Origin: an uncultured virus (IMG/VR IMGVR_UViG_3300021405_000011)
Taxonomy: Duplodnaviria; Heunggongvirae; Uroviricota; Caudoviricetes
Reading direction: 5' to 3' (one strand)
DNA length: 64,000 bases
IMG/VR virus record: IMGVR_UViG_3300021405_000011
The notes under the pieces were generated by a model. That model worked only from the letters and a program-made list of their open reading frames with translations. It searched no databases and was not told the DNA's origin. Below, piece by piece: positions 13,365 to 35,434 of this stretch. Each line of letters opens with the position of its first letter. Position 1 is the stretch's first letter. The position numbers and the translations under genes were made by a program.

Positions 13365-13373
13365 GAATGGAAA

Positions 13374-13877: not shown

Positions 13878-13887
13878 AGGAGTATAA

Positions 13888-14304: not shown

Positions 14305-14340
14305 CGATTTTTAACATGGTAGAATTAACTGGAGTTCCCA

Positions 14341-15276: not shown

Positions 15277-15278
15277 CG

Positions 15279-16982: not shown

Positions 16983-16988
16983 TTCTAA

Positions 16989-19277
16989 ATGGCCAACGAC
17001 TCCACCACCGGAATAGAGTTCCAGTCCCCGACCACTGGCGCTCGACAGAACGTCGCTCCCGAGAATTGGGAGGAGGCACTGAACCACGGCTACAAGCCTA
17101 CGCAACACGTAGTCATGTACGACAAGAACGGTAACCGTGGGATGGTCTCTAAGGCAGAGATGGCTGATTATGCGAGACAGGGATATCAGACGACTCCCAA
17201 GACGCAATTTGAGAAGAATATAACTGAAGGCCCTCGTGGAGTGTGGAATGCTCTAAAGGGTATGGTTCCTCCGGACCCCACAGAGGGACGTTCTCCACTA
17301 GACCCTAAATTTTGGCTGAATACAGATAAGACAAAGTTTGACCCTACCGGCCCCGGTACAGCCTACCACGACTTAACGCGTCCCCTCCCTCCCGACCTTC
17401 CCGGAGTCACCACGAGAGGAGGCAGTCCCACTCGTCAGGCTCTTTATCGTGGTGCTGCTGTTCTGGCTCCCTTAGCTGGAGGTAGTGCTGAAGGTATGGA
17501 AGATGCCGCTGCTAGAGGGGATACCTCTGGTGTCGCCACCCAAGCCGCCGTCCCCATTGCCACGGCCATCGGAGCCCCTTTTGTCAAAGCGGGTGTCAAC
17601 TATGGGATGGGCAAGTTACGTAGTGCACTGGCTCCTCCCATCGAAGGTGAAACTGGCCAAAACGCCATCGCTCAACAAGCTCTCAAACCCAAGCCCAAAG
17701 GTGCCCAACAATTTCAACGCGATATGAATCAGGGCGGACGGGCGTATCTCCAAGGTGCCGAGTCCCAAGCCGACTTACAGGCTAAAATTAAAGGAGCCAA
17801 GACGGAGATTTGGGACCCATATAATAAGGGACTAGAAAAGTTTGGCGAAGAGAGGACTGTTGGACCTGACGGTAAGCCCACTACTTACAGTAAACTCGAA
17901 GCTCGTCGTCTGGAACTCTCCGCTCAACTCCAGAAAGTTCGTTCCAAGGACCCCGCTACTCTCCAAACTCTTATCCAAGAAGGGAAGACCCCAGCCGACC
18001 TTATGGCGGAGGAGAAAGCTGTCACCGCTCCACTAGATGAACGCTTCCGTCAGGAGGGTATTAATCCTGATGCCATTCGGAACACGATGGGAGCTGTGAA
18101 GGGGATTGATAGACTGACATCTGGACGTAACACTCTCTCTGAACCCTCCCAACGATATGGATTAGGAACCATAGCCAAAAAGTTTGATGTAACCAAACCT
18201 GGCCAAATTCTCCCCGCTGTTGGCGAGGGAATTAAAGACATGGCTCAGGGTAAACCTGTTTGGAGCGGCAAGCCAACAGATGTAAATATCAAACAGGGAT
18301 TCCAAACTGGAGCCGATAAGCCATCTTTCCGTACCACCCTATCCCCCAAACCTCTTGGCCCCGAACCTAATCCCGCTAGACCATTTACCCCTCCCGGTCC
18401 CGCTGAACAAGTTCCCACCACCGGTCCCGGCAATAATCCAGCCGTCTTTCCAGATATTCCTTCTGGCCAGAATCCCTCCGTCCCCCACGCTGGAGGTGAA
18501 ATTCCCAACTGGCCTCCCAAGGTCCCCGACTGGAGTTCAACACGTAACCCTCCCCCCATCCCCGACGCCAATTCCACCATCCCCACTCCCAATCCTTACG
18601 GTCCTCCCTCCACTTCCGGTCCCCCTCCCATGCCCGGTGGATTAACCGACCAACAAGTAGGCCGCCTTCCTACAGCCCTCCGTAGCACTCTCTCTCAACC
18701 AGTCCCCCGTCCCGGTTCCTATTCCCCCGGTGCCCGTGCTGAAGTAACTCCCCAAGGCGGTCCCTTACCCACCTCCACTCCTCCCACCACCCCATCACTT
18801 TCCTCCGGTCCTTCCCCCCAACCTGATATACCATCAAAAGGGGCACCTCTTTCCACGGTGTCTCAGACACCAGCCGGTTCCACTCCGGCAAATACCGGGA
18901 ATGTGCCTCCGCCTACTATGCCCCCTGTTCCGGCTAGTTTCCGGACGGGTACTGGTATAGGAGTCACGGAGCCCACAGGTATTCAGACCGGAACTGGTAG
19001 TGGCGGCAACACTCGTGCTCCCTCCGGCTCCCCCACCCTCGAACGAGCCCTAGGAACAATGGACCAACAGTTGAAACCATACACTCAACGTTTAGGCGAA
19101 CAGCGTGTATCATTTCAGAAGGTCCTAGATGACCCGGCTGCTACTGCTGTTGATAAGACCAACGCCGAAATACAGATGAGAAAACTAGGTGGACAACGAG
19201 TGAAAGATATAGGTCCACCTGCGGGGACTGCGGACCAAAGAGTACCGCCTATTGGCCCATTGCCGGTGACGCCATGA
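16989..19277 (+). CDS. Putative ejection/internal virion protein 3
   Basis: N-terminal duplicated ~28 aa motif ending in GY, Ala/Gly hydrophobic segment, long Pro-rich tail. Confidence 0.6.
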   Translation: MANDSTTGIEFQSPTTGARQNVAPENWEEALNHGYKPTQHVVMYDKNGNRGMVSKAEMADYARQGYQTTPKTQFEKNITEGPRGVWNALKGMVPPDPTEGRSPLDPKFWLNTDKTKFDPTGPGTAYHDLTRPLPPDLPGVTTRGGSPTRQALYRGAAVLAPLAGGSAEGMEDAAARGDTSGVATQAAVPIATAIGAPFVKAGVNYGMGKLRSALAPPIEGETGQNAIAQQALKPKPKGAQQFQRDMNQGGRAYLQGAESQADLQAKIKGAKTEIWDPYNKGLEKFGEERTVGPDGKPTTYSKLEARRLELSAQLQKVRSKDPATLQTLIQEGKTPADLMAEEKAVTAPLDERFRQEGINPDAIRNTMGAVKGIDRLTSGRNTLSEPSQRYGLGTIAKKFDVTKPGQILPAVGEGIKDMAQGKPVWSGKPTDVNIKQGFQTGADKPSFRTTLSPKPLGPEPNPARPFTPPGPAEQVPTTGPGNNPAVFPDIPSGQNPSVPHAGGEIPNWPPKVPDWSSTRNPPPIPDANSTIPTPNPYGPPSTSGPPPMPGGLTDQQVGRLPTALRSTLSQPVPRPGSYSPGARAEVTPQGGPLPTSTPPTTPSLSSGPSPQPDIPSKGAPLSTVSQTPAGSTPANTGNVPPPTMPPVPASFRTGTGIGVTEPTGIQTGTGSGGNTRAPSGSPTLERALGTMDQQLKPYTQRLGEQRVSFQKVLDDPAATAVDKTNAEIQMRKLGGQRVKDIGPPAGTADQRVPPIGPLPVTP

Positions 19278-21514
19278 GAGTACACAGACTATTACTACTA
19301 TTAATGTATATACTATTATATACTAATATAGCTATGGGACAATCCACGGCGACCGTGACTGGCCACCTGATTTATCCCTCTGCCGGTCCTCCCACGAATG
19401 CACAAGTCTGCATGAGTCTCCAAAATTACAAACCAAACGTTCCTAGGATTATCGGAAGCGGAACCATAGTTAGCCAGACAAACTGGTGTATCTCCGTCTC
19501 TACAGTAGATGGCTCCTTCTCCGTCCCTCTCATTCGCAACGACTTCATCGCCCCCAACGGCACCTTCTGGCACATCTCTTACGTTTGGGATAATATCCAG
19601 CAATCGGGAGCCGATTGGCTCATTACTTCCACTCCCTTCAATCTCGATACCCAGACTCCACTTAGTTCCACTATCCCATTGGGTCCAGCTACTATCCTCA
19701 CCCAAAGCTTCCTGTGTTCTATCCCTGTCGCCTCCCTAACGTGGGTTTGTACGCATAACCTAAACGACCCTTACGTTGTGGTTGGTGACCCGTATAATTC
19801 CAGCAACGTTAGAATTTTTCCGGATACCCTTACCAGAACAGACGCGAATACGGTAACAATTACTTGGTTGTCCCCACAGGCGGGGTCCACAACTATCATT
19901 CACGCAGGTTCCCTTAACATTGCCACAAATCAACCAAACGCCGTCATCACGAATCCTTCCAGCAGTCAAACGGTCTCACAGCCATTTACCACCACTGGCC
20001 TTGACACCGCCGCAGGAGGCTTTACCAGTTCCGGTCCCACACAACTGAACGGGACCACGACAGCAGCCAATCCAATTGTCGGCAGCATCACCGGGAACGC
20101 GGGAACAGCCACCATAGCCAATGGCACGACCGGCATATCGACGCTGCTTTGCAAGAGTTTCGAGAATATAACCTGCGTTGACGCGGCCAACTCGCAAGGC
20201 TGGGCAGGCTCGGATTATGGTGCCTGGTTCAACGCCGCCGTTGCCGCCGCGAACGGAGGGGAAGTAATACTTGCTCCTTCTTCCACCCCGGTTAACGTAT
20301 CCACCACGATGTCCGTCACCGCTCCCGTGCATATTCACGGACCAGGCAAAGCCGCGCTCAAAATCAATTGTACGATGAACGCGGATTGCATGAACGTCCA
20401 CATGAGTCCCTTCACTATCTATCTCACCGGCACGGAAATAGAAGGATTTAGTCTTATTGGCCAAGGTACGGCCAATGCAAACGCAGTCGGCGTGCATTGG
20501 GGAGACATTCTTGATGCCCGCTTCGACGACATCGGCATTGATAATTTTCGAGGAGCAAATTCCGCTTGCTCCTGGGGCGACAACATCAACGGGTTCAGCG
20601 AACGCAATCTGTTCACTCACATTGATACCGGACTCGCTCCCGGCGAGCAGAATGGCTGCACTAAGGATTGGAAGTGGACGAACACATCAAACACGGCGCT
20701 GTCTTCCAGTTTTGCCCACAACCATTATGCCTTTAACAAATACAGTATCTTTGACGGGCAGACGGCTTTTTCGTTTGAAGGCGGAAACCACAACGGGCTT
20801 TCAGCTTTCGATTTTACCGGTAACATCAGCACCGGCACGACCGCCATTGTCGGCAGCGTCTCCGGACTGACCTATACCGGCGGGTCTTCCACTTTTCTCG
20901 ACGGGAACATCAACGTCACAGCCGAATGTACGCCTCCTTGCAGCGCAGGAACCCTGCTAAAAACGGTCGGTGCTCAAAACAACGTGTTCATTCGTAGTGG
21001 CGTTGGATTTCTTGATATCTCCGGTTTGTTGACTACCAGTTTCACAGGCAGCGTGGTCCGGGTCCTGAACGACACCTTCAACGGCGCGAATGCCGAATCT
21101 GTCTGGATTATGGGTCAATCATTTTCCGGCCCTTCCAATCCCTACATTTTCAATCCAGCTAATCCAGCGGCTAGTCGGCAGATAGCTATCCGGGACCCGC
21201 TAGGCCCCGCAGCTTTGGCCATGCATCTCAATGCCGCTACCGGTCTCTACCAGAGCAAACGTGGCACTAGCGGGTGTACGACAGCGGCGGCGATAGGCGG
21301 GATATGCGCTACACCAATAACCGTGACATGGACGACTTCATTCCCCGATACAAATTATAGTGCCGGATGTTCAGCGGAAGGAACTCCAAGTAATTCGCCT
21401 TCGCCGCCCTACGTTGCCACAAAAGCCAACGGTTCAATTACTGTAAATTATATGGCCATCACGGCGGTAGCGGCGGCTTGGCCTTCCGTCGATTGTTGGG
21501 CGGTACACGACTAA
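19274..21514 (+). CDS. Signal-peptide-bearing tail fibre/spike protein
   Basis: MRVHRLLLLL...IAMG-Q. N-terminal attachment-like domain, W.C.HNL motif, beta-helix middle, gp53-like C-terminus (VTW...FPDTNY). Confidence 0.7.
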   Translation: MRVHRLLLLLMYILLYTNIAMGQSTATVTGHLIYPSAGPPTNAQVCMSLQNYKPNVPRIIGSGTIVSQTNWCISVSTVDGSFSVPLIRNDFIAPNGTFWHISYVWDNIQQSGADWLITSTPFNLDTQTPLSSTIPLGPATILTQSFLCSIPVASLTWVCTHNLNDPYVVVGDPYNSSNVRIFPDTLTRTDANTVTITWLSPQAGSTTIIHAGSLNIATNQPNAVITNPSSSQTVSQPFTTTGLDTAAGGFTSSGPTQLNGTTTAANPIVGSITGNAGTATIANGTTGISTLLCKSFENITCVDAANSQGWAGSDYGAWFNAAVAAANGGEVILAPSSTPVNVSTTMSVTAPVHIHGPGKAALKINCTMNADCMNVHMSPFTIYLTGTEIEGFSLIGQGTANANAVGVHWGDILDARFDDIGIDNFRGANSACSWGDNINGFSERNLFTHIDTGLAPGEQNGCTKDWKWTNTSNTALSSSFAHNHYAFNKYSIFDGQTAFSFEGGNHNGLSAFDFTGNISTGTTAIVGSVSGLTYTGGSSTFLDGNINVTAECTPPCSAGTLLKTVGAQNNVFIRSGVGFLDISGLLTTSFTGSVVRVLNDTFNGANAESVWIMGQSFSGPSNPYIFNPANPAASRQIAIRDPLGPAALAMHLNAATGLYQSKRGTSGCTTAAAIGGICATPITVTWTTSFPDTNYSAGCSAEGTPSNSPSPPYVATKANGSITVNYMAITAVAAAWPSVDCWAVHD

Positions 21515-24500
21515 TGAAACGACTCCTTCTGTTTCTAATCCTGCCTTCGGCAGTATTTGGCCAAGGGACACAACACGGTCGGATTGTCGCCAATCAATTC
21601 TCGAACACCGGCGCGTTGACGATGACCGGAGCCACGCCAGATGTCTCCCAAGGAAACGTGTTCATCACCGCCAACGGCAGTCCCACGACTGTCACTAATT
21701 TTCTCAATCCCTTCGGCGCTCCCTTTCTCATCATCCTCTGCGGCGATACCAACACGACCTTCGCCAACAACGCCAACATCGTGATGGCCAGCGGGAGTAA
21801 CTTCATCTGTGCCGCGAATCAGAGTATCTCATTCGTCTATAACTCCCTATCGTCCAAGTGGATTCAGAGTTCCAGTGTGGCTGCGGCAGGTGGAGGGGGA
21901 GCGGTATCCAGTGTCTTTGGCCGTACTGGAGCCGTAGTCGCCGCTACTAACGACTACAGCTTCGCACAACTCAGTGGGAATATCTCTGTCTCGCAGATGA
22001 ACAGTGGAACAGGAGCTTCCGGTACGACCTTCTGGCGCGGTGATGGGACATGGGCCACGCCTGCGGGCGGCGGGGGGAGTGGCACCGTCAACAACGCTCT
22101 CCAATTCAGCGTTCCCTACTACTCCACTGCGGGCACCACCAACGTCCTAAGCGGCGTAAACGCTCCCACTGGTCCTAATGGTGTCGCTCAGGCATTCGTT
22201 TCCATTCCCTCTGGCGGTGTTGGGACTACTCCTGCCTTTGCTCTCCCTGGTATGGTCACTCGCCCGGTCACGGGAACCACTTCCACCGATACCATCGCTT
22301 CCGCCGATTGCAGTCCTAAAGTTGTGGAATATCAAGGCAGCGTGGCCGTGGCCGTCACTCTCCCTACAGCCACTACTCTCGCTCTCCCCAACTGTGTCCT
22401 CAGTCTCGTCAATAACACAAGTGGTTCGGCTACCGCTGTCACCGTCACTCCCACAACTTGGACCGTCTCTCCAGGAGGGGCTAGTTTAGTTATCGCCCAA
22501 GGCCAGTCCTGCCGTCTCACTGTGGATACCGTCGTCACCACGCAATGGGACGCGGAATGCCATGATGCACCATTCGTTGCCGGGTCCAATATCACGATTA
22601 CCAGAGGACAGTTCGGACCCACCATCGCAGCCACGGGCGGCGGATTCACGCCAGCCATCAACGGCACTCCACTATCCAGTGCCGGACTAAACCTCCAAAC
22701 GAGTACAACGAACGTTACCGGTCTCATCTGCACGCCAACACTCGTTTCGACCATCAACGTTATTCCCTGTGAGGTCAGCGGAACTATAACTGCCGGTCAC
22801 GTTGCGACGCTGAATCAGAATACGACTGGTACCGCAGCCAACCTTTCCGGCACTCCCGCCCTTCCAAATGGCACGACAGCCACGACGCAATCTCCCGGAG
22901 ATAATACAACTAAACTCGCCACCGATGCCTTCGTGCTCGCCAATTCCTTTACGAATCCAATGACGACCTTGGGAGACATGATTTACGGAGGGTCAGCAGG
23001 AGCCGCCACACGTCTCGCTGGCCCCACGGTCAATGGTTTATATACGGTCACGGAAAACGTTTCCGGCGGCGCGGCTACCGCTGAAACTTTTTCCCTTCCG
23101 GGCGTGCCAGTGGACGCGACGAACCCGGCTACATTGCTATACACTGACCGGGCGAACTACCTCAACTGGACAAGCGGGACAGCGTTGGCTTTACCTGCGG
23201 TAGCTACAAATTTTGCCTCCAACTTCCCATTCGTCATTAAGAACACTTCGACCACACTGACATTGACTCCAAACGTTGGTGCCTCGGACCTGATTGACAG
23301 TGCGGCGTCCGGGACACTCATCCCAAATTTCGCCGCCTTTGTCTATCAGGATTCAACTTCAGCTCCGGGACACTGGTGGACAGTTAAGTTCCCTACCTTT
23401 GCGGCGTTCGGTTCCAATTGCGGCAGCTCCACTCAAGCATTAAGTTGGTCCACCACAACCGGATTCGGTTGTCAGTCCATCACTGGTTCGGCCTCCGCTG
23501 GTGGGTCCAATACCCAAATTCAGTACAATAACTCTACCGCTCTCGGAGGTATCACAAATTTCACGTCAAATGGAACCAATCCTCTTTTGACGGCCATCGT
23601 TGCTCCCGCTGCGCCTGCGGCTGGATTCGATACGCTATATGAAGACTCCACCAATTTACGATTTCACGATATAAACGCCTCGGGAACCATAGGTACAACA
23701 GTCGTAGCCAACACAGGCTCGGCTAACAATTTCGTGACAGCCATCTCGGCAGCGGGTGTCGTTTCTCTCGCTCAGCCTGCATTCACAAACTTGTCCGGGT
23801 CTGCTACTTGCGGTCAACTGCCAGCATTGACAGGTGACGTAACAACATCAGCAGGTTCCTGCGCGACACTCGTCAAACAACCTCACTGGACCGAGACGGC
23901 CATAAATTTCGCATCCTCACCTTATACCGTCTTGGCCGCTGATACGGTCATCACCTGTGACGCCACAAGTGGTGCGGTAGTGATTAACCTTCCCGCGTCC
24001 AGTGGAGGTGGTCGGCAAATAACATTTAAGAAAATAGATTCCACTGCCAACGCCTGTACGCCGACTCGCGCCAGTACGGACCTCATTGATGGACAGACAA
24101 CTTTAAGTCCCGCGCTTACTGTCCAGTATGCCGTTGCGTCTCTTGTGGATACATCGTCGGGAGTTTGGTCCCGAACACACGTTAACCAACTAACTGGTGA
24201 CGTAACAGGTATCAGCACGGCGAACGTCGTGGGAAAAATTAACGGAGGCGCTTTCCCGGCTTCCGCAACCGTTGTCGGTTCCAATTCAAGCTCTCAACCC
24301 ATCGCCGCGACCTTAGCCAATACGGATATTTGGATAGGTACTGCTGGCAACCTCCCCGCACCTTTCCCTGTCACCGGCGACTCCTCCATGACCGCTGGTG
24401 GAGTGATGACGAATACTAAAATTAATGGAACCTCTATTCCAGTGAACTCCGCTGCGGACCAAATTATTAACACAAGCGCCTCCGCAGTTGGCCAGTGGAT

Positions 24501-27500
24501 ATCCCTTCCCAACTGTCCCGATTCAGGAGGGAATCATTTCAATTACACAACAGCCGCGCACACAATCACCTGCGGCACGACCTCCAGTGGCGGCGGAACG
24601 CCAGCCTTCCCTATAACTGTCACTGGAGGAGTCTCCGGAGCCATTCCTTATTTTAGCTCAACGACCGTGGAATCAGTTTCCGCTCTCTTGGCAGCGAATG
24701 CCATTATGACTGGTGGTGGTGTTGGCGCGGCTCCCCAGACGCCTTCAGCTACAGCAATCCTGAGTGCTGGCGGGGCAATGTCACTGCCGAGCACCCTGAC
24801 GGCAACGCAACTTATATCCAACATCGCCATTGGAACGGCACCACTGTCGGTGACTAGCACGACGGTAGTTCCCAACCTGAATGTGTCGCAGTTACTTGGA
24901 AGCACGTGGGCTGTCCCTCCAGCGATAGGCAGCACGACCCCGGCTGTTGGGACATTCACGACGCTCTCCTCCAGCGCCCTTGAAGGTTGCCAGCACGTCA
25001 ACGCGCTCCAATCGTTCGCGCAAGCTCTTACGGCGGTCAGCAATCCAGGTTGTATTGCCATCGACCCCGGCACATACACACTGGCGGCGAATCCAACGGT
25101 TCCAGCGGGCGTCAACCTAATTTCCGAAAGCGGCGGCGTCCTCTCGGTTCCAAACACGGTGACGCTGACGGTCAACGGCGGGTTGGTAGCCCCGCCCGTT
25201 CAAATCATCTCGAACACACCGCAAGTCGCTACCATCACGAACTTTGCCATCACGTCGAACGTTGTTACGTTCCTGGCAACGAACACATTTACCGCTGGTG
25301 AGGTCGTCTACGTCAATGGCTTGACTACGGCAACATATCTGAACGGTTGCGGCCTCATCGTTATCGCGACAGGTCTTTCCGGTTCACAATTCGAGGCCAA
25401 CCTCGTCTCCCCTTGCACCCACGCGAACGTTACATCAACCGCCGATAGCGGAACGGCAACACAGATTCCGATGGTGGTCAGCGGCAGTGTCCAAACGGCG
25501 AACCTCTACCCTCAATGGTGGGGCGCGAAAGGAGATAACTCCACTGACGACACGGCGGCGATTCAGGCATCAGAGGTCGCGGCGATTGCACCGGCTTCCA
25601 CGCAAGTCTTACCCGTTATCTTCCCAAGTGCTAACTATAAAGTCGTATCGGCTCTAATGTGGTCACCTTACGTTCCAGCCGTCGCGCTTGGCAGGGTATT
25701 CCTCAATACGGCGCTGGCTAGTGGAACATTCGTTAGCATCTCGGACCAGTACGGTTCCCCTGCTCCTAATCCCACTGGCATCGGTTCGACGCGCTCGGTC
25801 CCCTTCCGTGGCAACTTCCAATTCCACAACACGAATGCCGCGAACACGACATTCGCTTTCCTTATCGGTGGAACGAGTGCGGCATACACATCATCCGAAT
25901 CGACCCTCGACGGCATCGGCGTTCAAGGATTTCTTAGCGGAGTGTTCGTGTTCGGCTATCGGTCAGTCGGCGTCCATATCACGAACTGCTTTACGCTGAA
26001 CAACGGTGGCCCGCAAATCAGCGTGTTATCGGGAGCCACGGGATTCGGCGAGAGCCTTACGTTCGATAGCTGCATCTTTGGCGAGGATACGGGATTCGCC
26101 ACACCTGGCTATCTCATAAGTTGGAACACCGCGACGGCAGACGACTTCTACTTTACCGGATGCTCGTTCGATTATCTGTTGGGGATTAGTGACCCGGCTC
26201 AGACCGCCGCTCTAACCTCCGTGAACATTTCCGGCGCACACTTCGAGTGGAATGAGACGACTGCTCCTTACATACAGGCAGCAAACGGTATCAACATCAA
26301 GATACTCAATTCAAAGTTTTTTAGTCCTCTTACTACAGGATTCTTTAACCCGTTCGTCGGGAAAGTGACAGGTGCCAGCACGCTATCCATTACGAATGGC
26401 CGCTATGAATTTGGTGGCGTTGCAACGAACTTCTTCGACAACGCCTCGGCTACAGCAGGTAACTTACTCTATCTCGACCTTCAATTGAATTCCTCTACGA
26501 CGCCAACAACTTATTTCACCTTGACTGGTGGCGTCGGCCTTGCGAATGTGGTGTTCGATGGCGTGCCTACTGCCGGAGTATCTACCGTTGACCTCTCTAA
26601 TTACAGTATCGGACTCAGCAACATCTACCTCGGAGGCCATCCTGCGGGAGCGAACGTAGCGCAGTTCCAATTCAACAGCAGCACGGTAGCCGGAGTAGCG
26701 GGAACCAACTACACGCTATTCCGCTCTGGCGTCGCCGCCACGGAAGGCCACTCCTCCACTGGAGATCTAGGCCTCGCAGGTAGATTGGGACTAGCGGAGA
26801 TTGCCGCCCCCACTCCTGTTCTCAGTTCTGAAGACGTCTATGCAGACTCGACGACTCACGCCGTCACTATTCAAGCTCTCGCTCCAGCTTCAGTGGCCAC
26901 GACACCGGGAACAGCCGCTCCTACTGTGTTTGTGGTTCCGGGAGTAACCGGGGGAGCGACGACGAACGCGAGCGGCACGGGTGGTAAGGGATCAACGCCC
27001 TCCATTGCGGGCGGTACCGGCGGCGCTGCCAGCGGAGCCACGGCGAGCACGGGCGGCGCTGGAGGAGATATTCTCCTGCCGGCAGGTAATGGTGGCGCTG
27101 GAGCCGGAACGGGTGTCAATTCCAACGGCGGAAGCATCATCGTCACACCCGGTACACCGGGAACCGGTGGTTCAGGAACAGCAGGCAAGGCAGGTGTGCT
27201 ATCCGTGTTGGGCACTACCGCCGGATTCGTGGGCTTCACGCAAGGTTCGACGAACACTACAGCGAATACGAACATTCCAGCCAATACGATCATCGAGCAA
27301 GCTCCGACTTCGGTTACCGCTTATTCGTTGACTTTGCCAGGTGCGGCGGCCACGGGTTTTCCTATTTGGTCAAATTCTTCTGGAGTTGTGACGGAAAGCA
27401 TTACGACACAATTACAGTTCTCGGCACCCACACTCACTGTTGGTTTAGCGGGCACGAGCAGTGGAATTTTGGCGCTGGCCGGCTCGACGAGCGGCTCTGC

Positions 27501-28158
27501 TACCTTGACGGCTCCAGCGGTTGCCGGTACATCCACAAATCCGATCACGATTTCCAATTCTCTGCAATTGGCCAGTGGGACCGTCTACAACTGGAATGCG
27601 GATACCGGACTCTCGCGCGATGCCGCAGGCGTCGTGGACGTCGGCAACGGGACAGCCGGAAACAGTTCAGCTTTCATTCGCACCGGGAACACGGTTCAAG
27701 TAGCTTCAAACTTCACAACAGCCAGCACATCGCTAGTGACGATCACCGGATTAACTTGGACTCTACCGGCTACGAATCACAATTATTCATTCGTTTGCCA
27801 CGGCTCCTATTCCCAAGCGACGGCTGCCGCGGCTAACTTTTTTGGAATTCAAGCAACAACTACAGCACCCACGAATATTTATGCTGCAGACAGAATAAGC
27901 ACTGGACTTGCAGTTACAGGCGTTGATGGCACGCTGCCAACATTAACCACCACAACCGCTACGAACATTGGCGGTACTGGGTTCACTCCTAGCGCAGCAG
28001 GAGCGATTGGCACCGTGGCCGACATTTTTGTATTTGATATTTGGGGTACGATTGAGCAAGGAGCAGGCGCAACGACATTGAATATTATGGTGCTGACGGG
28101 CAGCGCAAGCGACTCGATTACAATTTACCGAGGAACTTCATGTACGTTGCAACCATAA
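21514..28158 (+). CDS. Giant modular signal-peptide-bearing tail fibre/spike (~2200 aa)
   Basis: TAATG-coupled start MKRLLLFLILPSAVFG-Q. Fibre motifs VSSVFGRTGAV, TFWRGDGTWA, LTGDVT and beta-helix cap WGAKGDNSTDDTAAIQ. Confidence 0.75.
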   Translation: MKRLLLFLILPSAVFGQGTQHGRIVANQFSNTGALTMTGATPDVSQGNVFITANGSPTTVTNFLNPFGAPFLIILCGDTNTTFANNANIVMASGSNFICAANQSISFVYNSLSSKWIQSSSVAAAGGGGAVSSVFGRTGAVVAATNDYSFAQLSGNISVSQMNSGTGASGTTFWRGDGTWATPAGGGGSGTVNNALQFSVPYYSTAGTTNVLSGVNAPTGPNGVAQAFVSIPSGGVGTTPAFALPGMVTRPVTGTTSTDTIASADCSPKVVEYQGSVAVAVTLPTATTLALPNCVLSLVNNTSGSATAVTVTPTTWTVSPGGASLVIAQGQSCRLTVDTVVTTQWDAECHDAPFVAGSNITITRGQFGPTIAATGGGFTPAINGTPLSSAGLNLQTSTTNVTGLICTPTLVSTINVIPCEVSGTITAGHVATLNQNTTGTAANLSGTPALPNGTTATTQSPGDNTTKLATDAFVLANSFTNPMTTLGDMIYGGSAGAATRLAGPTVNGLYTVTENVSGGAATAETFSLPGVPVDATNPATLLYTDRANYLNWTSGTALALPAVATNFASNFPFVIKNTSTTLTLTPNVGASDLIDSAASGTLIPNFAAFVYQDSTSAPGHWWTVKFPTFAAFGSNCGSSTQALSWSTTTGFGCQSITGSASAGGSNTQIQYNNSTALGGITNFTSNGTNPLLTAIVAPAAPAAGFDTLYEDSTNLRFHDINASGTIGTTVVANTGSANNFVTAISAAGVVSLAQPAFTNLSGSATCGQLPALTGDVTTSAGSCATLVKQPHWTETAINFASSPYTVLAADTVITCDATSGAVVINLPASSGGGRQITFKKIDSTANACTPTRASTDLIDGQTTLSPALTVQYAVASLVDTSSGVWSRTHVNQLTGDVTGISTANVVGKINGGAFPASATVVGSNSSSQPIAATLANTDIWIGTAGNLPAPFPVTGDSSMTAGGVMTNTKINGTSIPVNSAADQIINTSASAVGQWISLPNCPDSGGNHFNYTTAAHTITCGTTSSGGGTPAFPITVTGGVSGAIPYFSSTTVESVSALLAANAIMTGGGVGAAPQTPSATAILSAGGAMSLPSTLTATQLISNIAIGTAPLSVTSTTVVPNLNVSQLLGSTWAVPPAIGSTTPAVGTFTTLSSSALEGCQHVNALQSFAQALTAVSNPGCIAIDPGTYTLAANPTVPAGVNLISESGGVLSVPNTVTLTVNGGLVAPPVQIISNTPQVATITNFAITSNVVTFLATNTFTAGEVVYVNGLTTATYLNGCGLIVIATGLSGSQFEANLVSPCTHANVTSTADSGTATQIPMVVSGSVQTANLYPQWWGAKGDNSTDDTAAIQASEVAAIAPASTQVLPVIFPSANYKVVSALMWSPYVPAVALGRVFLNTALASGTFVSISDQYGSPAPNPTGIGSTRSVPFRGNFQFHNTNAANTTFAFLIGGTSAAYTSSESTLDGIGVQGFLSGVFVFGYRSVGVHITNCFTLNNGGPQISVLSGATGFGESLTFDSCIFGEDTGFATPGYLISWNTATADDFYFTGCSFDYLLGISDPAQTAALTSVNISGAHFEWNETTAPYIQAANGINIKILNSKFFSPLTTGFFNPFVGKVTGASTLSITNGRYEFGGVATNFFDNASATAGNLLYLDLQLNSSTTPTTYFTLTGGVGLANVVFDGVPTAGVSTVDLSNYSIGLSNIYLGGHPAGANVAQFQFNSSTVAGVAGTNYTLFRSGVAATEGHSSTGDLGLAGRLGLAEIAAPTPVLSSEDVYADSTTHAVTIQALAPASVATTPGTAAPTVFVVPGVTGGATTNASGTGGKGSTPSIAGGTGGAASGATASTGGAGGDILLPAGNGGAGAGTGVNSNGGSIIVTPGTPGTGGSGTAGKAGVLSVLGTTAGFVGFTQGSTNTTANTNIPANTIIEQAPTSVTAYSLTLPGAAATGFPIWSNSSGVVTESITTQLQFSAPTLTVGLAGTSSGILALAGSTSGSATLTAPAVAGTSTNPITISNSLQLASGTVYNWNADTGLSRDAAGVVDVGNGTAGNSSAFIRTGNTVQVASNFTTASTSLVTITGLTWTLPATNHNYSFVCHGSYSQATAAAANFFGIQATTTAPTNIYAADRISTGLAVTGVDGTLPTLTTTTATNIGGTGFTPSAAGAIGTVADIFVFDIWGTIEQGAGATTLNIMVLTGSASDSITIYRGTSCTLQP

Positions 28159-29891
28159 AGACGAGGGAGTCAATTCAGACTATAAAGAGAGTATGGTTTC
28201 TACTACTGCTTTTCTTATTCCCGATTATCTGCTCGGCGCAGACACCGACGATCATCCAATTTGTCGATAGTGCCTCGAACGCAGGAAATGAAGTCGGTAA
28301 TGATTTCAACATCAACCTCGACGCCATTCCGACGAACGATTGCGTGGTGCTGTTCCTCACCTACAATCACCTCGCGACCGACCCGACGATAACCGATCTA
28401 CAGTCACCGGGCGGCCCCGGCGCGTCCAACCTCGGCACCCAGAACACTTGGACGCTCGCCAAAAAGCAAAGCAACACGGGTAACGGCACTACGAACGACA
28501 GCGCCATTTGGTACACCTTGGGCGGGACGGTAGCCGGAACTCAATTCATTAAGGTTCACTTCGCTTCGACGCTTCTGAACTTCAAGCGCATGGCAGTCGT
28601 GTCCTACAACACGGACTGTACTTTGAAAGGGACTGGCAGCGCTCAGGGGCTCACCGGCCCAACGATGTCGTCCGGTAGCTTCACGCCGTCCGTCAACGGG
28701 ACCCTGATACTAAACTTTGGAATGGACGCGAACGGCGGTTTCCCCGGCAACGCGCCGAACGCCACCGGGTTCACCGCTGGGTCGAGCTTCACTCTGCTTG
28801 AAGGTAACCGTATGGGCTCGGCGCTCATTTCGTGGGCGCAGTTCTTTGTACAGAGCACAGCGGCGGCGATTAACCCTGGTATCACAGTCTCTGGCGACAC
28901 CGACACCGACAACATGGGAGTCTCTGCGGCATTCAATCCCGCCTCGCAAGGGTCGGACTTCGCGGCTGGTATCATCGTCCGTAGCATCTTCCATGTCTTC
29001 CCTGGCGCTACCTACCCACAAACAGTCAATGTGCCGTGTGGATTCGGCAACCCAAATCACTTTATCTTTGTCCATTCCGCTGGGGTCAACCAAGACGCTT
29101 TGACCGGCGTGGTCATCGCGAATCCGACAAAGACTCTGACAAAGCATTCGATCGATGCGAACGACACATCGCAGGTTTATTCCAGCGACGATGGTACTCT
29201 CTCACTTACTAGTACGATGACGACCACCATCAGCGAGACTGGAACACCAAGCGGTGGGGCGCACATGCTCTATTGTGTATCCGGTGCGGCTACATCCCCA
29301 TTCGACACCGTTGCGGGAAATGGCACTACTGTGACTGCGGCCACCACGACAACACAATCCAGGATCGCAACGGATACCACTGTAACGGTAAACACCAACA
29401 CCATCGCCAACAACGATTTTCTTATGTGGGAAAGTGAAATCATTCAGGTAACTTCTGGAGGTGGAACTGGGACACTCACAATTTCTCGTGGCTTGCGAGG
29501 AACCACGGCGGCATCTCATGCGACGACCACTAACCTAGTGGAGACGAACCAGACAAATCTTCCCAGCATTACTCCGTCGACCAAGAATGGACTCATCATC
29601 TTTAGCGCAGCGTTCGGTACTGGGCCTCCAGATAATGGCAGCCCCGGTCCGCTCGACACGATGTTTTATCTGGGCGAGACGGACACAGGCGGCAACGACG
29701 CAGCCGACTACTACAGCCATTACTACAACCCGAGCACGGCGACGGTGAACAATACGATAGTGCTGCACAACAGCGGAAATTTGACAAGCATTAACTATGT
29801 AGGTGTGGCTTACAAAGCTGCACCCATAGGACCACAACCCAATCTTAGTATCGGTGGAAAACTCATCCAAGGTGGAAAGATCGTAAATTGA
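28140..29891 (+). CDS. Signal-peptide-bearing beta-sandwich repeat protein
   Basis: KRVWFLLLLFLFPIICSA-Q with two related T/G-rich beta domains. Start uncertain. Confidence 0.65.
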   Translation: MYVATIKTRESIQTIKRVWFLLLLFLFPIICSAQTPTIIQFVDSASNAGNEVGNDFNINLDAIPTNDCVVLFLTYNHLATDPTITDLQSPGGPGASNLGTQNTWTLAKKQSNTGNGTTNDSAIWYTLGGTVAGTQFIKVHFASTLLNFKRMAVVSYNTDCTLKGTGSAQGLTGPTMSSGSFTPSVNGTLILNFGMDANGGFPGNAPNATGFTAGSSFTLLEGNRMGSALISWAQFFVQSTAAAINPGITVSGDTDTDNMGVSAAFNPASQGSDFAAGIIVRSIFHVFPGATYPQTVNVPCGFGNPNHFIFVHSAGVNQDALTGVVIANPTKTLTKHSIDANDTSQVYSSDDGTLSLTSTMTTTISETGTPSGGAHMLYCVSGAATSPFDTVAGNGTTVTAATTTTQSRIATDTTVTVNTNTIANNDFLMWESEIIQVTSGGGTGTLTISRGLRGTTAASHATTTNLVETNQTNLPSITPSTKNGLIIFSAAFGTGPPDNGSPGPLDTMFYLGETDTGGNDAADYYSHYYNPSTATVNNTIVLHNSGNLTSINYVGVAYKAAPIGPQPNLSIGGKLIQGGKIVN

Positions 29892-32002
29892 AAAATCTAG
29901 CTATCTTCTTTGCCTTAATTTTTGCCTCATCCGCGCGCGCCCAACTTTGGTCTGGGGTTCTTGCGCCTGCTCGCGCAGGGCAGAACTGGCAGCAAGCCGG
30001 GGCTGATCCAACTTACGTAAATGAAGTTCGAACGCAGTGCGGTACGACTATCGCGGCTTACGGAAGTTCGGGAACTCCCGCTTCAGCCGCCACGATCAAC
30101 ACGGCCATCTCGAATTGCGCTACGGCCCATCCGTTGAGTGGCGTTGGCGGATACGTCCAACTTGGGGCAGGAAATTTTTTCCTGAATACGCAATGGAATC
30201 TCTCAAGCAATGTGACTGTGCGGGGCATGGGCGCAAATCAGACGTTCGTTTTCCTTTACAACACTACTTCTAGTTGTCCATTTTCAGGCGGAGCGGATAT
30301 TTGTATTTCGACTAGTTCTCCTGGTTTTGGCTATGACGGTAACGCTGACACCGATTGCACCAATTGGACCCCTGCCCTGAATGGAGCAGACAACTGCGCT
30401 GGCTGGACCGCTGGCTATTCGCAAGGTACAACTAGCATAACGGTCGGCACCTTTCTTCATGGCGCGATGAGCAACTGGCAAGTCGGAAGTATTATCTTCC
30501 TCGACCAAGTCGACCAATCGAATACATCTCCACCGACTACGGGATTAGCTGTTTGCCGGAACGGAGCTTGTGGCGGCGGGAACGTAAGTGGTCGGCCTAA
30601 TCGCTCTCTTACTGAACCTCAAGTTATCACTTCCATCTCCGGTACTGGTCCGTGGACTATCGGCATCACCCCCGGTATTCGTATGCCAAGCTGGTTTACC
30701 TCCGGGAGTACTCCCCAAATTTGGGGAAATTCCGGTTTAGCTATTCAGCGTATTGGCATTGAGAATATGTCCATTGACAACTCCAATGCCTTAAACGTGT
30801 TTTCGACCGTTCAGTGTATAGATTGTTATAACGTATGGATAAAGGGAGTTCGATTTTCCGATACCCATGGCGATACGGAGACTGGACAAAACGGGTTCTA
30901 TCAGTTTTATCCCATCCAATCCATGCGCGTAACTCTCCGGGATAGTTACTCCTACGGCTCTCCGCCCGTCTCAAACTACTATGTGATGTCCTGCTGGACG
31001 AGCGGCGATGAGCTTTACGAGAATAACATCCGGCAGCACATGGCCTTTGGTTTCATGGCCGAGGGTTGCGTGAACTGGGTGCACGCCTACAACTTTGACA
31101 TCGACGACTACTACACGCATTGCCACGGCTGCTCTCTTGATGCCCAATGGCAGCAGGCAAGCTCCTACCGCCACGGCGGTACGGACGCCTTGGGACTCCA
31201 TGAGGGGGATGTTGGAATAGGAGTGATTGGGGACCAAGTGTTCGGAGCTTCCGACCTTATAACGGACTTCCGTAATCAATACAACGGACGCGACCCCAAT
31301 GGCGGCAGTTCCGGAGGCAAGTCGGAGCAAACGAACGCCGTCTTGCTTTATCCGTTTAACCGTATTTGGAATATTGTTGGTAATGTCCTCGGCACGGGAG
31401 CCTACCACGATACTTATAGCTGTCTAACTCCGAGTGCGGCAGGACATTGTGGAGATAATTCCGCTGAGATTTATTCCTTAGGCTATGTAGACGGCAGTTC
31501 GTGTACCGGGACGTGCCAAGCCGATAGCTATGTTGGAACCGGGATGATGAAATGGGGAAACTACGACACGGTTAGCAACGCGGTTCGTTGGTGCGGGAAC
31601 TCGGGTAATACCGGATGGAGTACAACTTGCGGTAGCGTATCGGAGGTTCCAACGGGACTCTCGGATGGATTCTCCAACACCGTACCGTCCACCCAGACAT
31701 TACCGGCGTCTTTTTACCTCAATTCCCGGCCTTCGTGGTGGGTATTCCCTTCAGGTAATTCTGGTACTCCTTGGCCAGGGATAGGTCCGGATATAACGGG
31801 AGGGAATATTACCGCAGGGACAGGGACAAGTTCGACGCTCGGTGGCCATGCCTATTTGAATCCAGCGGCAAACTGTTATCTCAATGTAATGGGCGGGCCA
31901 ACTAACGGGGCGGCGACACTGGTATCTTTCAATGCAGCTACTTGCTATCCATCCGGTGGTCCTCCAGCGCCAGCGACGGCTCTCTTTGCAAAGGTGCAAT
32001 GA
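29888..32002 (+). CDS. Signal-peptide-bearing Cys-rich right-handed beta-helix (pectin-lyase-like) protein
   Basis: MKNLAIFFALIFASSARA-Q, INTAISNC...V.LGAG.F...VTVRG.G, GIENMSID. Confidence 0.75.
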   Translation: MKNLAIFFALIFASSARAQLWSGVLAPARAGQNWQQAGADPTYVNEVRTQCGTTIAAYGSSGTPASAATINTAISNCATAHPLSGVGGYVQLGAGNFFLNTQWNLSSNVTVRGMGANQTFVFLYNTTSSCPFSGGADICISTSSPGFGYDGNADTDCTNWTPALNGADNCAGWTAGYSQGTTSITVGTFLHGAMSNWQVGSIIFLDQVDQSNTSPPTTGLAVCRNGACGGGNVSGRPNRSLTEPQVITSISGTGPWTIGITPGIRMPSWFTSGSTPQIWGNSGLAIQRIGIENMSIDNSNALNVFSTVQCIDCYNVWIKGVRFSDTHGDTETGQNGFYQFYPIQSMRVTLRDSYSYGSPPVSNYYVMSCWTSGDELYENNIRQHMAFGFMAEGCVNWVHAYNFDIDDYYTHCHGCSLDAQWQQASSYRHGGTDALGLHEGDVGIGVIGDQVFGASDLITDFRNQYNGRDPNGGSSGGKSEQTNAVLLYPFNRIWNIVGNVLGTGAYHDTYSCLTPSAAGHCGDNSAEIYSLGYVDGSSCTGTCQADSYVGTGMMKWGNYDTVSNAVRWCGNSGNTGWSTTCGSVSEVPTGLSDGFSNTVPSTQTLPASFYLNSRPSWWVFPSGNSGTPWPGIGPDITGGNITAGTGTSSTLGGHAYLNPAANCYLNVMGGPTNGAATLVSFNAATCYPSGGPPAPATALFAKVQ

Positions 32003-34686
32003 TGAAACGTTTTACTTTCTTTGGACCAGCGAGCAGACCAATTTCTACGCGACAGCCAAGCAAAGTCTTCAATATCAACGATGGCGTTTTGGCCTTGTGT
32101 GAGAGGAATCAGGCGGTAAGATGGGTCAGATGGCTGAGTAACAGTATGCCTTGGCAAAGGCGGTCTGGCCATGTTCGCACCTCAAATGCGAATTTGGTAC
32201 TCAGCCATTTTATCATAACTGCCGTCCTTCTCTTCTCTCCCAGTGTAATATTCTCTCAGGGAACATTCACCAGAGACGGGCTAACGGCACCCAACGCACA
32301 TCCACGTTTATTTTTAACTCCCTCTAGAGTCACAACGATGCAGGCTTGGGTCACAAGTACCAGTTATCCTGGACTCACAACCAGTCCGCGTCCACTCGAC
32401 GATTACGACCTCGCATTCACCTGCTTTATTATGAATGTCTCCGCTGCCTGCACCCAAGTCATCACCGACGCCATCGCTATAAGTGGAGCGTCCTGTTCCA
32501 CGAGTGCCGGTTGTGACCCGATGAGGGGTAGCGGCGAGGAAGCGATGATTGTCCGGGACTGGCTCTACCCCGGCTGCGGCAAAGCCTCCTGCCTCACCAG
32601 CGGACAGGTGACGACTTTCGATTCCAATTGGAGCACGTGGCAGACGAATCAGGACGCAACCGCCCAGACGTGGGGCAACGTAGGAATGCCGGTCAGCAAT
32701 TATTTTTGCGGGCAGTTCAGGAATGACTTTGACTTCGGGATAGCCAGCTACATCGACAACGCGAATGCTCCGGCTAACTTGGACTATGGCGCGGTGAACC
32801 GCTGGAACGACCTGCTTAACTTTGTCTCTCTCACAGGTACGGGGAAGAATGGGAAATTAGGATACGGTCTCTATAACCAAGAGGGAGGCGGTGAGTACGG
32901 ACGCTACTGCCTCAACTACTATGCGTTCTCCCTGGCGTCCTCAGCTTTACTTGGGCGAGACATGTGGCAGGAATCCACAGCTTTCAAATCCGGCGTGTTG
33001 CAGACCATCTACAACACGATGCTTACTACCACGACCGGGCGCGGACTGTGGGATTTGTTCACATGGGCGGATGACGAGACTTGGGTAGCGGCGAATAGTT
33101 GCGGATTCATCAGCCACAACTCGACCGGGAACACGAATACGACCGGGGGCTGCATGGCCGAGTCTCAATTCTACGGAGATTTCATGCAAGCGGCGGCCAC
33201 CGAATACAGCGCGACAAACATAGGCAAGTACGCTCGCCAGTGGCTTACTACCGTCAAACCAGCCATTGGACCCATATTCAAATCAGTGGATACTGGCGGT
33301 TCAACACTGGCTTTCTCCAATCTTCCTCTCGATTACTACTCCTCTGGTGCTCAGTATATGTATCTCCACGACACGTGGGCTTCGACTGGTACCGCAGTAC
33401 TCTGGCAGATGGGAACCAATCAAGGAGGAAACACATCGCCCACCTTGGCCATCGGCACAGGCCACTGGCACATTGACACAGGAACCTTCCAAGCCTCGCG
33501 CAAAGGCGTCAATATTATCAGGGAGACGATGGGATACTCCGACACCGTGGCAGGCTATAACGGTGTCGGCACAATCGCTTCGGGAGACGGCATTGCGCAC
33601 AACGTCCCCCTCGTTGGCGGGAAAGCGGAAGTCATCTTCCAAGAAATATCGGATGGGCCTGGAATCGTGAAGCGGTTGGAGACGCAACCTAACTATGGAT
33701 TCGCCGCAGTGGACCTGACACTTACCTATCAGAATAACGTTGTAGACTCGGGAAATCCATCCAGGGAGAATCAGCATGCGGTATCAGTAGTAAGGGAATT
33801 CTACTATTTTCGCGGTATCAATACATTAGTTATTCTTGACCGCTTCCAGAATGACCTCTCGACTACCAGCACGACGTTTGTGAGTCACTGCGAGACGAGT
33901 CCAACAGTGGTGTCAGCGACAGTAAAATGTGTCGATGGGACACAGGAAGCGTTCTATACCGCACTAGTTCCAGCAGCTCCCACTATCGCCATCGTCAACG
34001 AGAGTTCCAATTCCGCAACCTCAGCCGCTTGGCAATATAGAATCGAGAGCAACAACAGCAATCCCGGTAATGTAGTTAACTATCAAATCAACACGATTCA
34101 GTTAGGAGATTCGGGATTCAGCCCGCTTACACCAGGTGTCGTGGACAGTTCACCGGGAACTCCCTCAACGGGAACTTTCACAATCACTCTCGACACCAAC
34201 GACAGTATCGTGGTGAATAAGGGTATCGCGTCCGTTGGCGGGACTATTAAGGCTAACAATGTCTCGAACTCATTGGCTACGACAGTTGAGAATATGACGA
34301 TTACCGATAGCGGTCCGGTGTGGGGGACAGTTGTCCCTCCTCCAGCGCCGTCTAAAACTGTCATTTTTACCTCTTATCCTCTACCAGCATCAGGAGTAGT
34401 ACCGGTTATCACCAATATCATACCCACAGGTAGTTATGTCACCTCAAATGGGTGTAGCCAAGATGGGATTAATTGGAATCTATTATGTCCCGTAAGGTTG
34501 TTATGTACGGGATGTGGTATCACTAGTATCGTCACTTTTGACGGTAATGTGGTCCCGTCCACTTTCCAAATGGGAGAGATGGATATCAATATTCCACTCA
34601 GGATGCTCCCTACCCAATCCACAATTAAGACTCTCCATACGTTTAGTGTCACGAATCCCATTACCACGGTACCCGTCATAAACTGA
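31999..34686 (+). CDS. Heparinase II/III-like polysaccharide lyase-fold protein
   Basis: HPRLFLT, EG..YGRY, H.H.D.G.F and HN motifs in the order of Hepar_II_III-type lyases. ATGA coupling at 31999. N-terminus interrupted by an insert. Confidence 0.65.
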   Translation: MMKRFTFFGPASRPISTRQPSKVFNINDGVLALCERNQAVRWVRWLSNSMPWQRRSGHVRTSNANLVLSHFIITAVLLFSPSVIFSQGTFTRDGLTAPNAHPRLFLTPSRVTTMQAWVTSTSYPGLTTSPRPLDDYDLAFTCFIMNVSAACTQVITDAIAISGASCSTSAGCDPMRGSGEEAMIVRDWLYPGCGKASCLTSGQVTTFDSNWSTWQTNQDATAQTWGNVGMPVSNYFCGQFRNDFDFGIASYIDNANAPANLDYGAVNRWNDLLNFVSLTGTGKNGKLGYGLYNQEGGGEYGRYCLNYYAFSLASSALLGRDMWQESTAFKSGVLQTIYNTMLTTTTGRGLWDLFTWADDETWVAANSCGFISHNSTGNTNTTGGCMAESQFYGDFMQAAATEYSATNIGKYARQWLTTVKPAIGPIFKSVDTGGSTLAFSNLPLDYYSSGAQYMYLHDTWASTGTAVLWQMGTNQGGNTSPTLAIGTGHWHIDTGTFQASRKGVNIIRETMGYSDTVAGYNGVGTIASGDGIAHNVPLVGGKAEVIFQEISDGPGIVKRLETQPNYGFAAVDLTLTYQNNVVDSGNPSRENQHAVSVVREFYYFRGINTLVILDRFQNDLSTTSTTFVSHCETSPTVVSATVKCVDGTQEAFYTALVPAAPTIAIVNESSNSATSAAWQYRIESNNSNPGNVVNYQINTIQLGDSGFSPLTPGVVDSSPGTPSTGTFTITLDTNDSIVVNKGIASVGGTIKANNVSNSLATTVENMTITDSGPVWGTVVPPPAPSKTVIFTSYPLPASGVVPVITNIIPTGSYVTSNGCSQDGINWNLLCPVRLLCTGCGITSIVTFDGNVVPSTFQMGEMDINIPLRMLPTQSTIKTLHTFSVTNPITTVPVIN
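32010..32207 (-). pseudogene. N-terminal fragment of HNH-AP2-type homing endonuclease
   Basis: RLIPLTQGQNAIVDIEDFAWLSRRNW matches the typical N-terminus of phage HNH-AP2 proteins. GAGGTG RBS lies in a hairpin. No HNH motif follows. Confidence 0.65.
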
Positions 34687-35249: not shown

Positions 35250-35259
35250 AGGAGAGGTT

Positions 35260-35424: not shown

Positions 35425-35434
35425 GGAGTCTTAA

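Follow-up and report, generated by a model that had tools for sequence, protein, structure and literature searches.

We analysed a stretch of 64,000 nucleotides (hereafter the window) from an uncultured tailed virus, IMG/VR record IMGVR_UViG_3300021405_000011, in which five genes, called here F1 to F5, occupy positions 19274–34686 between the ejection-protein genes and the lysis genes. The product of each of these block genes has a basic N-terminus, then a hydrophobic core, then a small-x-small site with Gln behind it. From sequence, the N-terminal segments are very likely real export signals that use Sec and are cleaved by signal peptidase I, and the cysteine-rich host-recognition proteins of the phage are probably exported rather than folded in the cytoplasm. 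In the textbook account, the virion proteins of tailed phages are folded and assembled in the cytoplasm. Neither Sec leaders nor signal peptides were found reported for fibres or tailspikes of tailed phages in the literature searched, subscription journals not being covered, and as far as that literature shows the feature has not previously been described for such genes. That every fibre or spike candidate bears a conserved export signal, in several unrelated phage lineages of one abundant soil phylum, challenges the view of a purely cytoplasmic assembly.

Export leaders of the block genes

Leaders were called by a purpose-made rule that requires at least one net Lys or Arg, then an uncharged hydrophobic core, and small residues at −3 and −1. 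The rule was positive in 13 of the 75 window genes, including seven of the eight for which an earlier note, made from the sequence alone, had claimed a leader. Among wrong-frame or wrong-strand open reading frames (ORFs), 11 of 170 (6.5%) were positive; at this decoy rate, five consecutive leader genes lie far beyond chance. The portal, capsid, adaptor, nozzle and ejection proteins had been held to be leaderless, and this was borne out, as the rule was positive in none of the 14 core structural genes from the portal to the last ejection protein.

All five block genes lie on the plus strand. F1 (746 amino acids, 19274..21514) has a 22-residue leader that ends in AMG ahead of the Gln, F2 (2214 amino acids, 21514..28158) a 16-residue leader (VFG, then Q), F3 (583 amino acids, 28140..29891) a 33-residue leader with a long basic n-region (CSA, then Q), and F4 (704 amino acids, 29888..32002), which starts with TTG, an 18-residue leader (ARA, then Q). 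F5 (846 amino acids, 32146..34686) was missed by the rule because its longest ORF starts too early; from an in-frame ATG at 32146 it possesses a 37-residue leader (IFS, then Q). A leader with Gln at +1 is thus present in all five genes, as had been claimed, at the starts 19274, 21514, 28140 and 29888 originally proposed and, for F5, at 32146. Beyond the hydrophobic core, of about 8–15 residues, the leader proteins of the block have no membrane segment.

The earlier note had arrived at the F5 leader by removing an 'insert' from the gene. This step proved needless. Since the ATG at 32146 gives a normal leader, the 143 nucleotides in question (32003..32145, open in the F5 frame and on the reverse strand) are better read as a spacer before a downstream start. 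The reverse ORF (31945–32172) had no match in Pfam (E cut-off 1e-5) or in the PHROGs (E cut-off 0.1). An HNH remnant at this place was considered and dropped, as neither collection gave a match and the ATG explains the leader.

Leaders are kept in homologues, as the earlier note had expected. A search with the nozzle protein yielded solely the window's own contig and one relative, and more relatives were recovered with an alignment of the F1 N-domain, namely four related viral contigs (G003, G004, G005 and G006). Two of them, G004 (63,257 bp) and G006 (70,826 bp), with direct terminal repeats, are rated complete. The four contigs share the order portal, capsid, adaptor, nozzle, small conserved protein and ejection-type proteins; past the latter stand two to five large genes, all with leaders, and then the lysis genes. 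Large fibre candidates other than the block genes were found neither in the window nor in the two complete relatives.

In the F1 family, leader and Gln at +1 are present in 22 of 22 sequences. The n-region carries one to three Lys or Arg ahead of the hydrophobic core in all 22 relatives; position −1 is Ala in 18, Gly in two and Ser in two, and position −3 is Ala in 14, Ser in three, Val in three and Gly in two. Pairwise identity is 37% over the leader, compared with 57% and 51% over the mature N-domains. The leader is therefore less conserved than the mature domain, with its n-h-c organization and −3/−1 pattern retained, which is the manner in which signal peptides evolve. A profile search of 1.84 billion representatives returned 141 matches to F1 at E 1e-30 or better. 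Among the best 150 profile hits, the N-termini of 91 new representatives with full-length or N-terminal matches were read. A leader was carried by 81; the other 10 start inside the mature domain or within the end of a leader, and no leaderless relative was seen among the 91.

Could the true starts lie downstream, so that the leaders are not translated at all? A gene caller did begin F1 at Met21 (P0121), and the longest-ORF start of F5 is probably wrong. An artefact of this kind is nevertheless very improbable, given that open, hydrophobic, positively charged extensions are kept in more than 100 homologues from different families, that most homologues have no internal Met at the junction, and that the starts overlap upstream stop codons. 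Four of the five block genes overlap the preceding stop codon, by 4, 1, 19 and 4 nucleotides.

The leader proteins had also been described as Cys-rich, and the counts agree with this. In the window, Cys accounts for 104 of 6013 residues (1.73%) in leader proteins and for 24 of 5052 (0.48%) in leaderless structural proteins (Fisher p 2.6e-10). The corresponding values are 1.91% and 0.58% for G004, and 2.01% and 0.36% for G006. Over these three genomes the enrichment is 3.5- to 5.5-fold, with a Fisher p of at most 3e-8 per genome. The mature Cys count is even in six of the seven window leader proteins, and F1 has two conserved Cys pairs, C46/C72 and C148/C159, each inside a single domain. The enrichment, together with such conserved same-domain pairs, fits oxidative folding.

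It is also conceivable that the hydrophobic N-termini are not used for export, serving instead as an uncleaved helix for assembly or membrane insertion, or that Sec is shut down late in infection. Such a reading would agree with the cytoplasmic assembly of textbook tailed phages. We consider it improbable in view of the −3/−1 rule, obeyed in 22 of 22 F1 relatives with an invariant Gln at +1, of the Cys enrichment, and of the same leaders on cellular homologues, which include lipoproteins. Moreover, an exposed hydrophobic helix of 12 to 15 residues would be unusual on a soluble cytoplasmic trimer.

Leaders had been claimed for three genes of the head region as well, and two of these claims stand. 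The gene at 2912..4774 (plus strand, 620 amino acids, 18 Cys) has a good leader (TPA, then Q), and so has the small gene at 4759..5187 (plus strand, 142 amino acids; AQA, then G). The product of 2912..4774 is possibly a beta-helix depolymerase; it lies near viral depolymerase and beta-helix clusters in the ESM Atlas (scores 0.85–0.89), which is a lead and no more. In G004 the corresponding position is occupied by a gene of 547 amino acids with a leader and a similar mature start, and no BLAST match was found between the two products. The third gene, 2436..2912 (plus strand, 158 amino acids), has a hydrophobic N-terminus and was positive by the rule. Its leader is doubtful, because the protein has no Cys and its G004 homologue (68% identical, the sole one seen) has a leaderless start with a stop codon just upstream.

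Fibre and enzyme features of the block proteins

F1 was modelled as two beta-sandwich domains (residues about 24–215), a variable middle and a C-terminal lectin-like domain (657–746). In the family alignment the N-terminal 230 or so residues are conserved and the remainder is variable. The model places a helix at residues 2–22, followed directly by the beta domain; the C-terminal domain is confident and the middle 430 residues are unreliable. The C-terminal domain matches that of the LKA1 gp49 tailspike (Z 9.7, root-mean-square deviation 2.4 Å over 83 residues), and also the phi297 gp61 tailspike (Z 8.4) and R-type pyocin fibres (Z 8.0). When the whole model was compared using Foldseek, no match at E 1e-3 or better appeared in PDB, and 61 appeared at that level in BFVD, mostly uncharacterised phage proteins. 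No gp17-type or other fibre family was matched by the F1 N-terminus in Pfam or the PHROGs at the thresholds used, and the conserved N-domains of F1 and F2 resemble no known anchor. A complex prediction for the F1 N-domain with the adaptor and a 167-amino-acid protein encoded beside the nozzle scored 0.00, which is evidence neither way. In T7-like phages the fibre gene sits after the ejection-protein genes; the F1 gene likewise lies directly 3′ of such genes, and its start overlaps the stop of the last of them.

The second beta-sandwich of F1 (residues about 135–220, 19676–19933) is matched by PHROG 21918, and occurs as a repeat unit in 4–12 copies in many large proteins of the representative library. 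In G003, an endonuclease VII/HNH-type gene (L004:17493-18005; PHROG E 1e-32) has been inserted between the last ejection gene and F1, and the F1 leader behind it is intact.

F2 is a giant fibre-like protein with a conserved N-domain of about 110 amino acids, and both leader and N-domain are kept in G003, G004, G005 and G006. Its residues 137–192 match proteins of other phages, including a leaderless protein at the fibre position of Bradyrhizobium phage ppBjS10J-1. Residues 998–1080 are 50% identical to gp13 ('tail fiber protein') of the cultured phage Tunturi 2, within a common module of 86 amino acids. F2 gave one weak match to a tailspike PHROG (E 3e-4), and sequence searches of PDB with F2 and F5 gave none. 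For F3, no match was found in Pfam or the PHROGs. The N-terminal 250 or so residues of F3 lie near small viral proteins in the ESM Atlas (template modelling scores by row 0.69–0.76), again as a lead only.

F4 contains 22 Cys and is colinear with a family of secreted Acidobacteriota proteins, of which 243 homologues were found. A leader was called in 107 of the 120 homologues listed, by a crude rule, and 83 of these 120 have a small residue followed by Gln at the junction. Eight Cys are invariant or nearly so in the alignment. No other gene of the window phage was found near the homologue at 79 of 80 kept genome loci, and at four of five loci inspected the homologue stands among polysaccharide-synthesis genes, its neighbours encoding Wzy (Wzy_C), Wzx (Polysacc_synt_3), glycosyltransferases and UDP-glucose dehydrogenase. 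The F4 model is a right-handed parallel beta-helix (predicted local distance difference test 83, predicted template modelling score 0.89). Among PDB structures it comes closest to capsule depolymerases and tailspikes of phages (Foldseek E 2.5e-10 to 4e-9); the F4 profile against PDB sequences gave a weak N-terminal polygalacturonase match alone (E 0.003). By alignment and model, F4 is a near-copy of an exported Acidobacteriota protein from exopolysaccharide loci, with a predicted tailspike-depolymerase fold.

A homologue 63% identical to F4 was noted on a 9.5-kb contig binned as 'Candidatus Eisenbacteria' (L009), with an F2-like piece upstream. This contig is probably a phage fragment mis-binned into a bacterial metagenome-assembled genome.

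Residues 31–728 of F5 are 62–76% identical to cellular proteins assigned by their sources to the heparinase II/III family; Pfam gave no match to F5 at E 0.01. These cellular proteins are mostly lipoproteins, and two have a signal-peptidase-I leader and the same mature N-terminus. Among 119 F5 homologues, a lipobox is present in 75 and a signal-peptidase-I leader in 21. The third fibre gene of G004, otherwise different, has a C-terminus with 45% identity to residues 739–845 of F5, and this module of about 110 amino acids is not in the cellular homologues. F5 thus appears to be a heparinase II/III-like lyase copied from the host, joined to a C-terminal module shared with the fibre gene of another phage. 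The capture looks recent, with up to 76% identity over about 700 amino acids; in its course the host lipobox and Ig-like domains were apparently replaced by a signal-peptidase-I leader, and the C-terminal module was added.

Judged by these alignments, two of the five block proteins, F4 and F5, descend from exported host proteins, either secreted or lipoprotein enzymes. Their named relatives are mainly Acidobacteriota, chiefly Terriglobia, and the predicted host of the phage is a member of the Terriglobia.

Leaders in other phages and comparison with known systems

The F1 N-domain was present in five of 401 sampled Terriglobia genomes, one of which (unpublished) was left out of closer reading. 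In three of the five, the gene lies beside head genes of another prophage type, again with a leader. The head genes of the G175 prophage, assigned by PHROGs, are a terminase, a portal (phrog_113) and a capsid (phrog_1005), and the same region encodes a leader-bearing protein of 678 amino acids that matches tailspike PHROGs. In the distant podovirus MW202554, leader-bearing proteins are encoded 3′ of the portal; its tail-collar protein has a hydrophobic N-terminus that lacks a basic residue and was negative by the rule.

The Tunturi phages of Tunturiibacter (PMC11924767) are cultured phages of Terriglobia, and two of them resemble the window in possessing leader-bearing, Cys-rich fibre genes. 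In Tunturi 2, leaders are present on gp12, gp13, gp14 ('pectin lyase'), gp16 and gp17 ('virion structural protein'). They mostly end in Ala followed by Gln, the four large proteins of this set contain 10–34 Cys, and the portal, capsid and other structural proteins are leaderless. In Tunturi 4, gp113 and gp114 have leaders, and a leader also appears in gp111 ('tail fiber protein') once its ORF is followed upstream; these proteins are Cys-rich, and the phage has in addition the large leaderless tail proteins gp15 and gp16. The core proteins of the Tunturi phages are unrelated to those of the window, the sole shared piece being the 86-amino-acid module of F2 and gp13. The term 'signal peptide' does not occur in the main text of the phage description, nor 'signal' in those of its supplementary tables that were searched (PMC11924767). 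As to gp111 itself (L115, about 80076–83171), an upstream ATG gives a leader very like that of gp113, and the annotated GTG start at 80433 is probably too late.

Tailspike depolymerases (LKA1 gp49, phi297 gp61, Klebsiella phage K1 lyase, KP34p57) resemble the present proteins in the beta-helix fold of F4 and in the C-terminal domain of F1. They differ in that the present proteins are Cys-rich and carry leaders, and F4 has no phage-specific N-terminal domain. To our knowledge, the known podovirus tailspike depolymerases lack signal peptides and acquire their fold in the cytoplasm. The cellular relatives of F4 have their best analogue in WceF of Pantoea stewartii, which is described as an exported bacterial glycanase with a tailspike fold, encoded with exopolysaccharide-synthesis genes (PMC7949094). 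Exopolysaccharide loci, an export signal and a tailspike-like fold are common to both. According to the same source, the chromosomal WceF carries a Tat signal together with a P22-like head-binding domain, while F4 has a Sec-type leader and resides in a phage.

The junctions resemble the Q-rule of signal-peptidase-I substrates, described as specific to Bacteroidetes (PMC5837995). Common to both are a basic n-region, a hydrophobic core, small residues at −3 and −1, and a Gln at +1 that glutaminyl cyclase can convert to pyroglutamate. The difference is that the relatives here are Acidobacteriota, not Bacteroidota. In unrelated leader-like ORFs of Acidobacteriota (loci L010–L088, with crude and noisy calls), Gln was the commonest residue at +1 (24 of 155, against a background of 3.3%), and the glutaminyl cyclase family Glu_cyclase_2 (PF05096) scored above its cut-off in 33 of 101 Terriglobia genomes sampled. 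A Q-rule-like tendency may exist outside Bacteroidota. A general Q-rule in Acidobacteriota was considered and set aside, the crude ORF and leader calls being too noisy for more than 'enriched'.

Phages of Porphyromonas gingivalis have been reported to carry five genes that have no known function and bear Q-rule leaders, for which the authors suggest a use of host secretion (PMC10367356). The likeness lies in phage genes having host-type Sec leaders with Gln at +1. In that report they are read as possible outer-membrane modifiers and not as fibres or spikes, whereas here every fibre or spike candidate bears a leader. The pIII protein of filamentous phages is likewise a host-recognition protein that is made as a Sec preprotein and matured in the envelope (PMC8310372). 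It differs in its C-terminal membrane anchor and in its addition while a non-lytic filamentous phage is being extruded. The phage of the window has a tail and an HK97-like capsid and is of lytic type, and beyond the leader its leader proteins contain no membrane segment.

Attachment to the virion and the remainder of the window

We propose that the leader-bearing genes encode exported precursors of fibres, spikes and depolymerases that are later joined to tails; as an explanation of the whole, this has about an even chance of being right. That at least some of the leader-bearing proteins reach virions seems to us equally balanced between yes and no. On this proposal, Sec would carry the unfolded precursors across the inner membrane, and signal peptidase I would remove the leader and expose the Gln, which might then cyclise to pyroglutamate. 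Folding with disulfide bonds would take place in the periplasm, as for the host's secreted polysaccharide-active enzymes, and capsids with tails would assemble separately in the cytoplasm. F1 and F2, at least, would join the tail no earlier than the opening of the inner membrane by a holin or the lysis of the cell; a hole-forming holin is to be expected, since the endolysin is leaderless. F4, F5 and the head-region beta-helix protein might ride on F1 or F2, or might act as free envelope enzymes that cut host exopolysaccharide. Attachment to the virion after export is the step that we infer. More broadly, and with somewhat less than even confidence, we suggest that a group of tailed phages of Acidobacteriota, spanning several lineages, builds its host-recognition apparatus in the periplasm, in a two-compartment assembly with docking after the holin breach.

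Export and oxidative folding, as the earlier note had interpreted the leaders, are upheld by several independent lines of sequence evidence (leaders, Gln at +1, Cys content and host homologues). Its description of the whole set as receptor-binding was too broad, as two members resemble whole host enzymes and have no phage-specific N-terminal docking domain.

The proteins might instead be exported and stay off the virion, as secreted or envelope enzymes and adhesins that remodel the exopolysaccharide and surface of the infected cell. They could then free progeny, destroy receptors on debris or block superinfection, and the virion would bind through the nozzle and the 167-amino-acid protein. We hold this, the main rival reading, to be less likely than not. 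In its favour, F4 and F5 are whole host-type secreted or lipoprotein enzymes, the cellular F4 homologues lie in exopolysaccharide loci, as WceF of Pantoea is described to do (PMC7949094), and the F1 N-domain is not bound to one tail type. The nozzle has a weak match to a tail-fibre PHROG (E 7e-4), the 167-amino-acid protein is kept in all relatives, and Tunturi 4 has the leaderless gp15 and gp16 beside its leader-bearing set. If the proteins acted only off the virion, however, the window phage and its two complete relatives would have no large fibre or spike, and accessory enzymes would take up as much as about a fifth of the genome (in the window, 15.4 kb out of about 72 kb). F1 and F2, moreover, are built like fibres, conserved in the N-terminal part, swapped in the distal part and equipped with a C-terminal domain of tailspike type, and the block genes are translationally coupled to the ejection genes. 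The computation here does not separate the two readings.

Several points count against our proposal of export followed by attachment. The leader calls rest on a purpose-made rule and on conservation. In the window's F1, a Met stands immediately ahead of the cleavage site, and a leaderless isoform is possible there; a Met near this position occurs in only two of 21 homologues. The N-terminal fold of F1 is a generic Ig-like sandwich with Z around 7–8, a level common among unrelated folds, and the presence of this domain in an unrelated prophage type weakens the case for specific anchoring to the tail of this podovirus. F4 aligns over 95–100% with cellular proteins from just past the leader, and lacks a phage-specific docking domain; F5 departs from its cellular relatives solely by the C-terminal module. 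The leaderless, conserved 167-amino-acid protein beside the nozzle could be the true tail-borne receptor binder. Finally, Tunturi 3, which grows on the host strain of Tunturi 2, has leaderless, Cys-poor fibres, which indicates that the feature belongs to phage gene modules and is not forced by the host.

Either answer would be new. Should the proteins reach the virion, this would be a new assembly route and would explain the adoption of disulfide-rich host exoenzymes as spikes; a two-compartment assembly, if true, is one not described for any tailed phage, and would make secreted host enzymes directly usable as spikes. Should they stay off it, up to a fifth of the genome would go to secreted enzymes, and some minimal device would have to bind the host. 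Since Tunturi 2 and Tunturi 4 are in culture, and Tunturi 3 provides a natural leaderless control, the question can be put to a direct test. Annotation pipelines and host-range predictors that discard proteins with signal peptides as non-structural would miss such genes, and recombinant depolymerases from such phages would require oxidative folding.

Taken as a whole, the window covers both the late and the early region of a podovirus-like phage from soil. Among its proteins, Pfam and PHROG searches identified the portal, the major capsid protein, an adaptor of SU10 type, a VanY/M15 endolysin and a class-3 lipase. An IMG/VR contig overlaps the window at both ends with 100% identity, from which it follows that the genome is circular or terminally redundant and about 72 kb long (7,957 nucleotides more than the window); the F1 protein is also on record in a 72,100-nucleotide contig. 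No tRNAs were found in the window.

The leaderless virion core (14 genes, 104..19277, plus strand, 0.48% Cys) has Pfam and PHROG matches for portal, capsid and adaptor, and also includes a scaffold-like gene. Within it, all on the plus strand, lie the adaptor (10303–11019), the nozzle (11031–13364), the 167-amino-acid protein (13374–13877) and three ejection-type proteins (14341–19277). The 167-amino-acid protein gene and a second small leaderless gene past the nozzle (13888–14304) are kept in all relatives at 38–55% identity; neither matched a Pfam or PHROG family. The former product could be a tail-borne partner or a minimal receptor binder. The portal ORF (window 2–1828) has long Pro/Gly-rich extensions at either end.

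The lysis region (34704..38207, plus strand) begins with a protein of 181 amino acids that has a C-terminal membrane segment. It continues, on the same strand, with a membrane protein of 108 amino acids (35794–36120), the leaderless VanY/M15 endolysin (36341–36814; Pfam and PHROG), the class-3 lipase (36829–37584; PF01764 E 6e-21, PHROG esterase/lipase) and a lipoprotein of 208 amino acids (37581–38207). The lipase gene lies directly 3′ of the endolysin gene, and outer-membrane lipids might be its target at lysis. The minus strand carries a family-A-like DNA polymerase and other early genes. One of the minus-strand genes of the early region (42863–43390) encodes a protein of 175 amino acids with a leader and two more membrane segments, possibly a superinfection-exclusion or membrane-remodelling protein.

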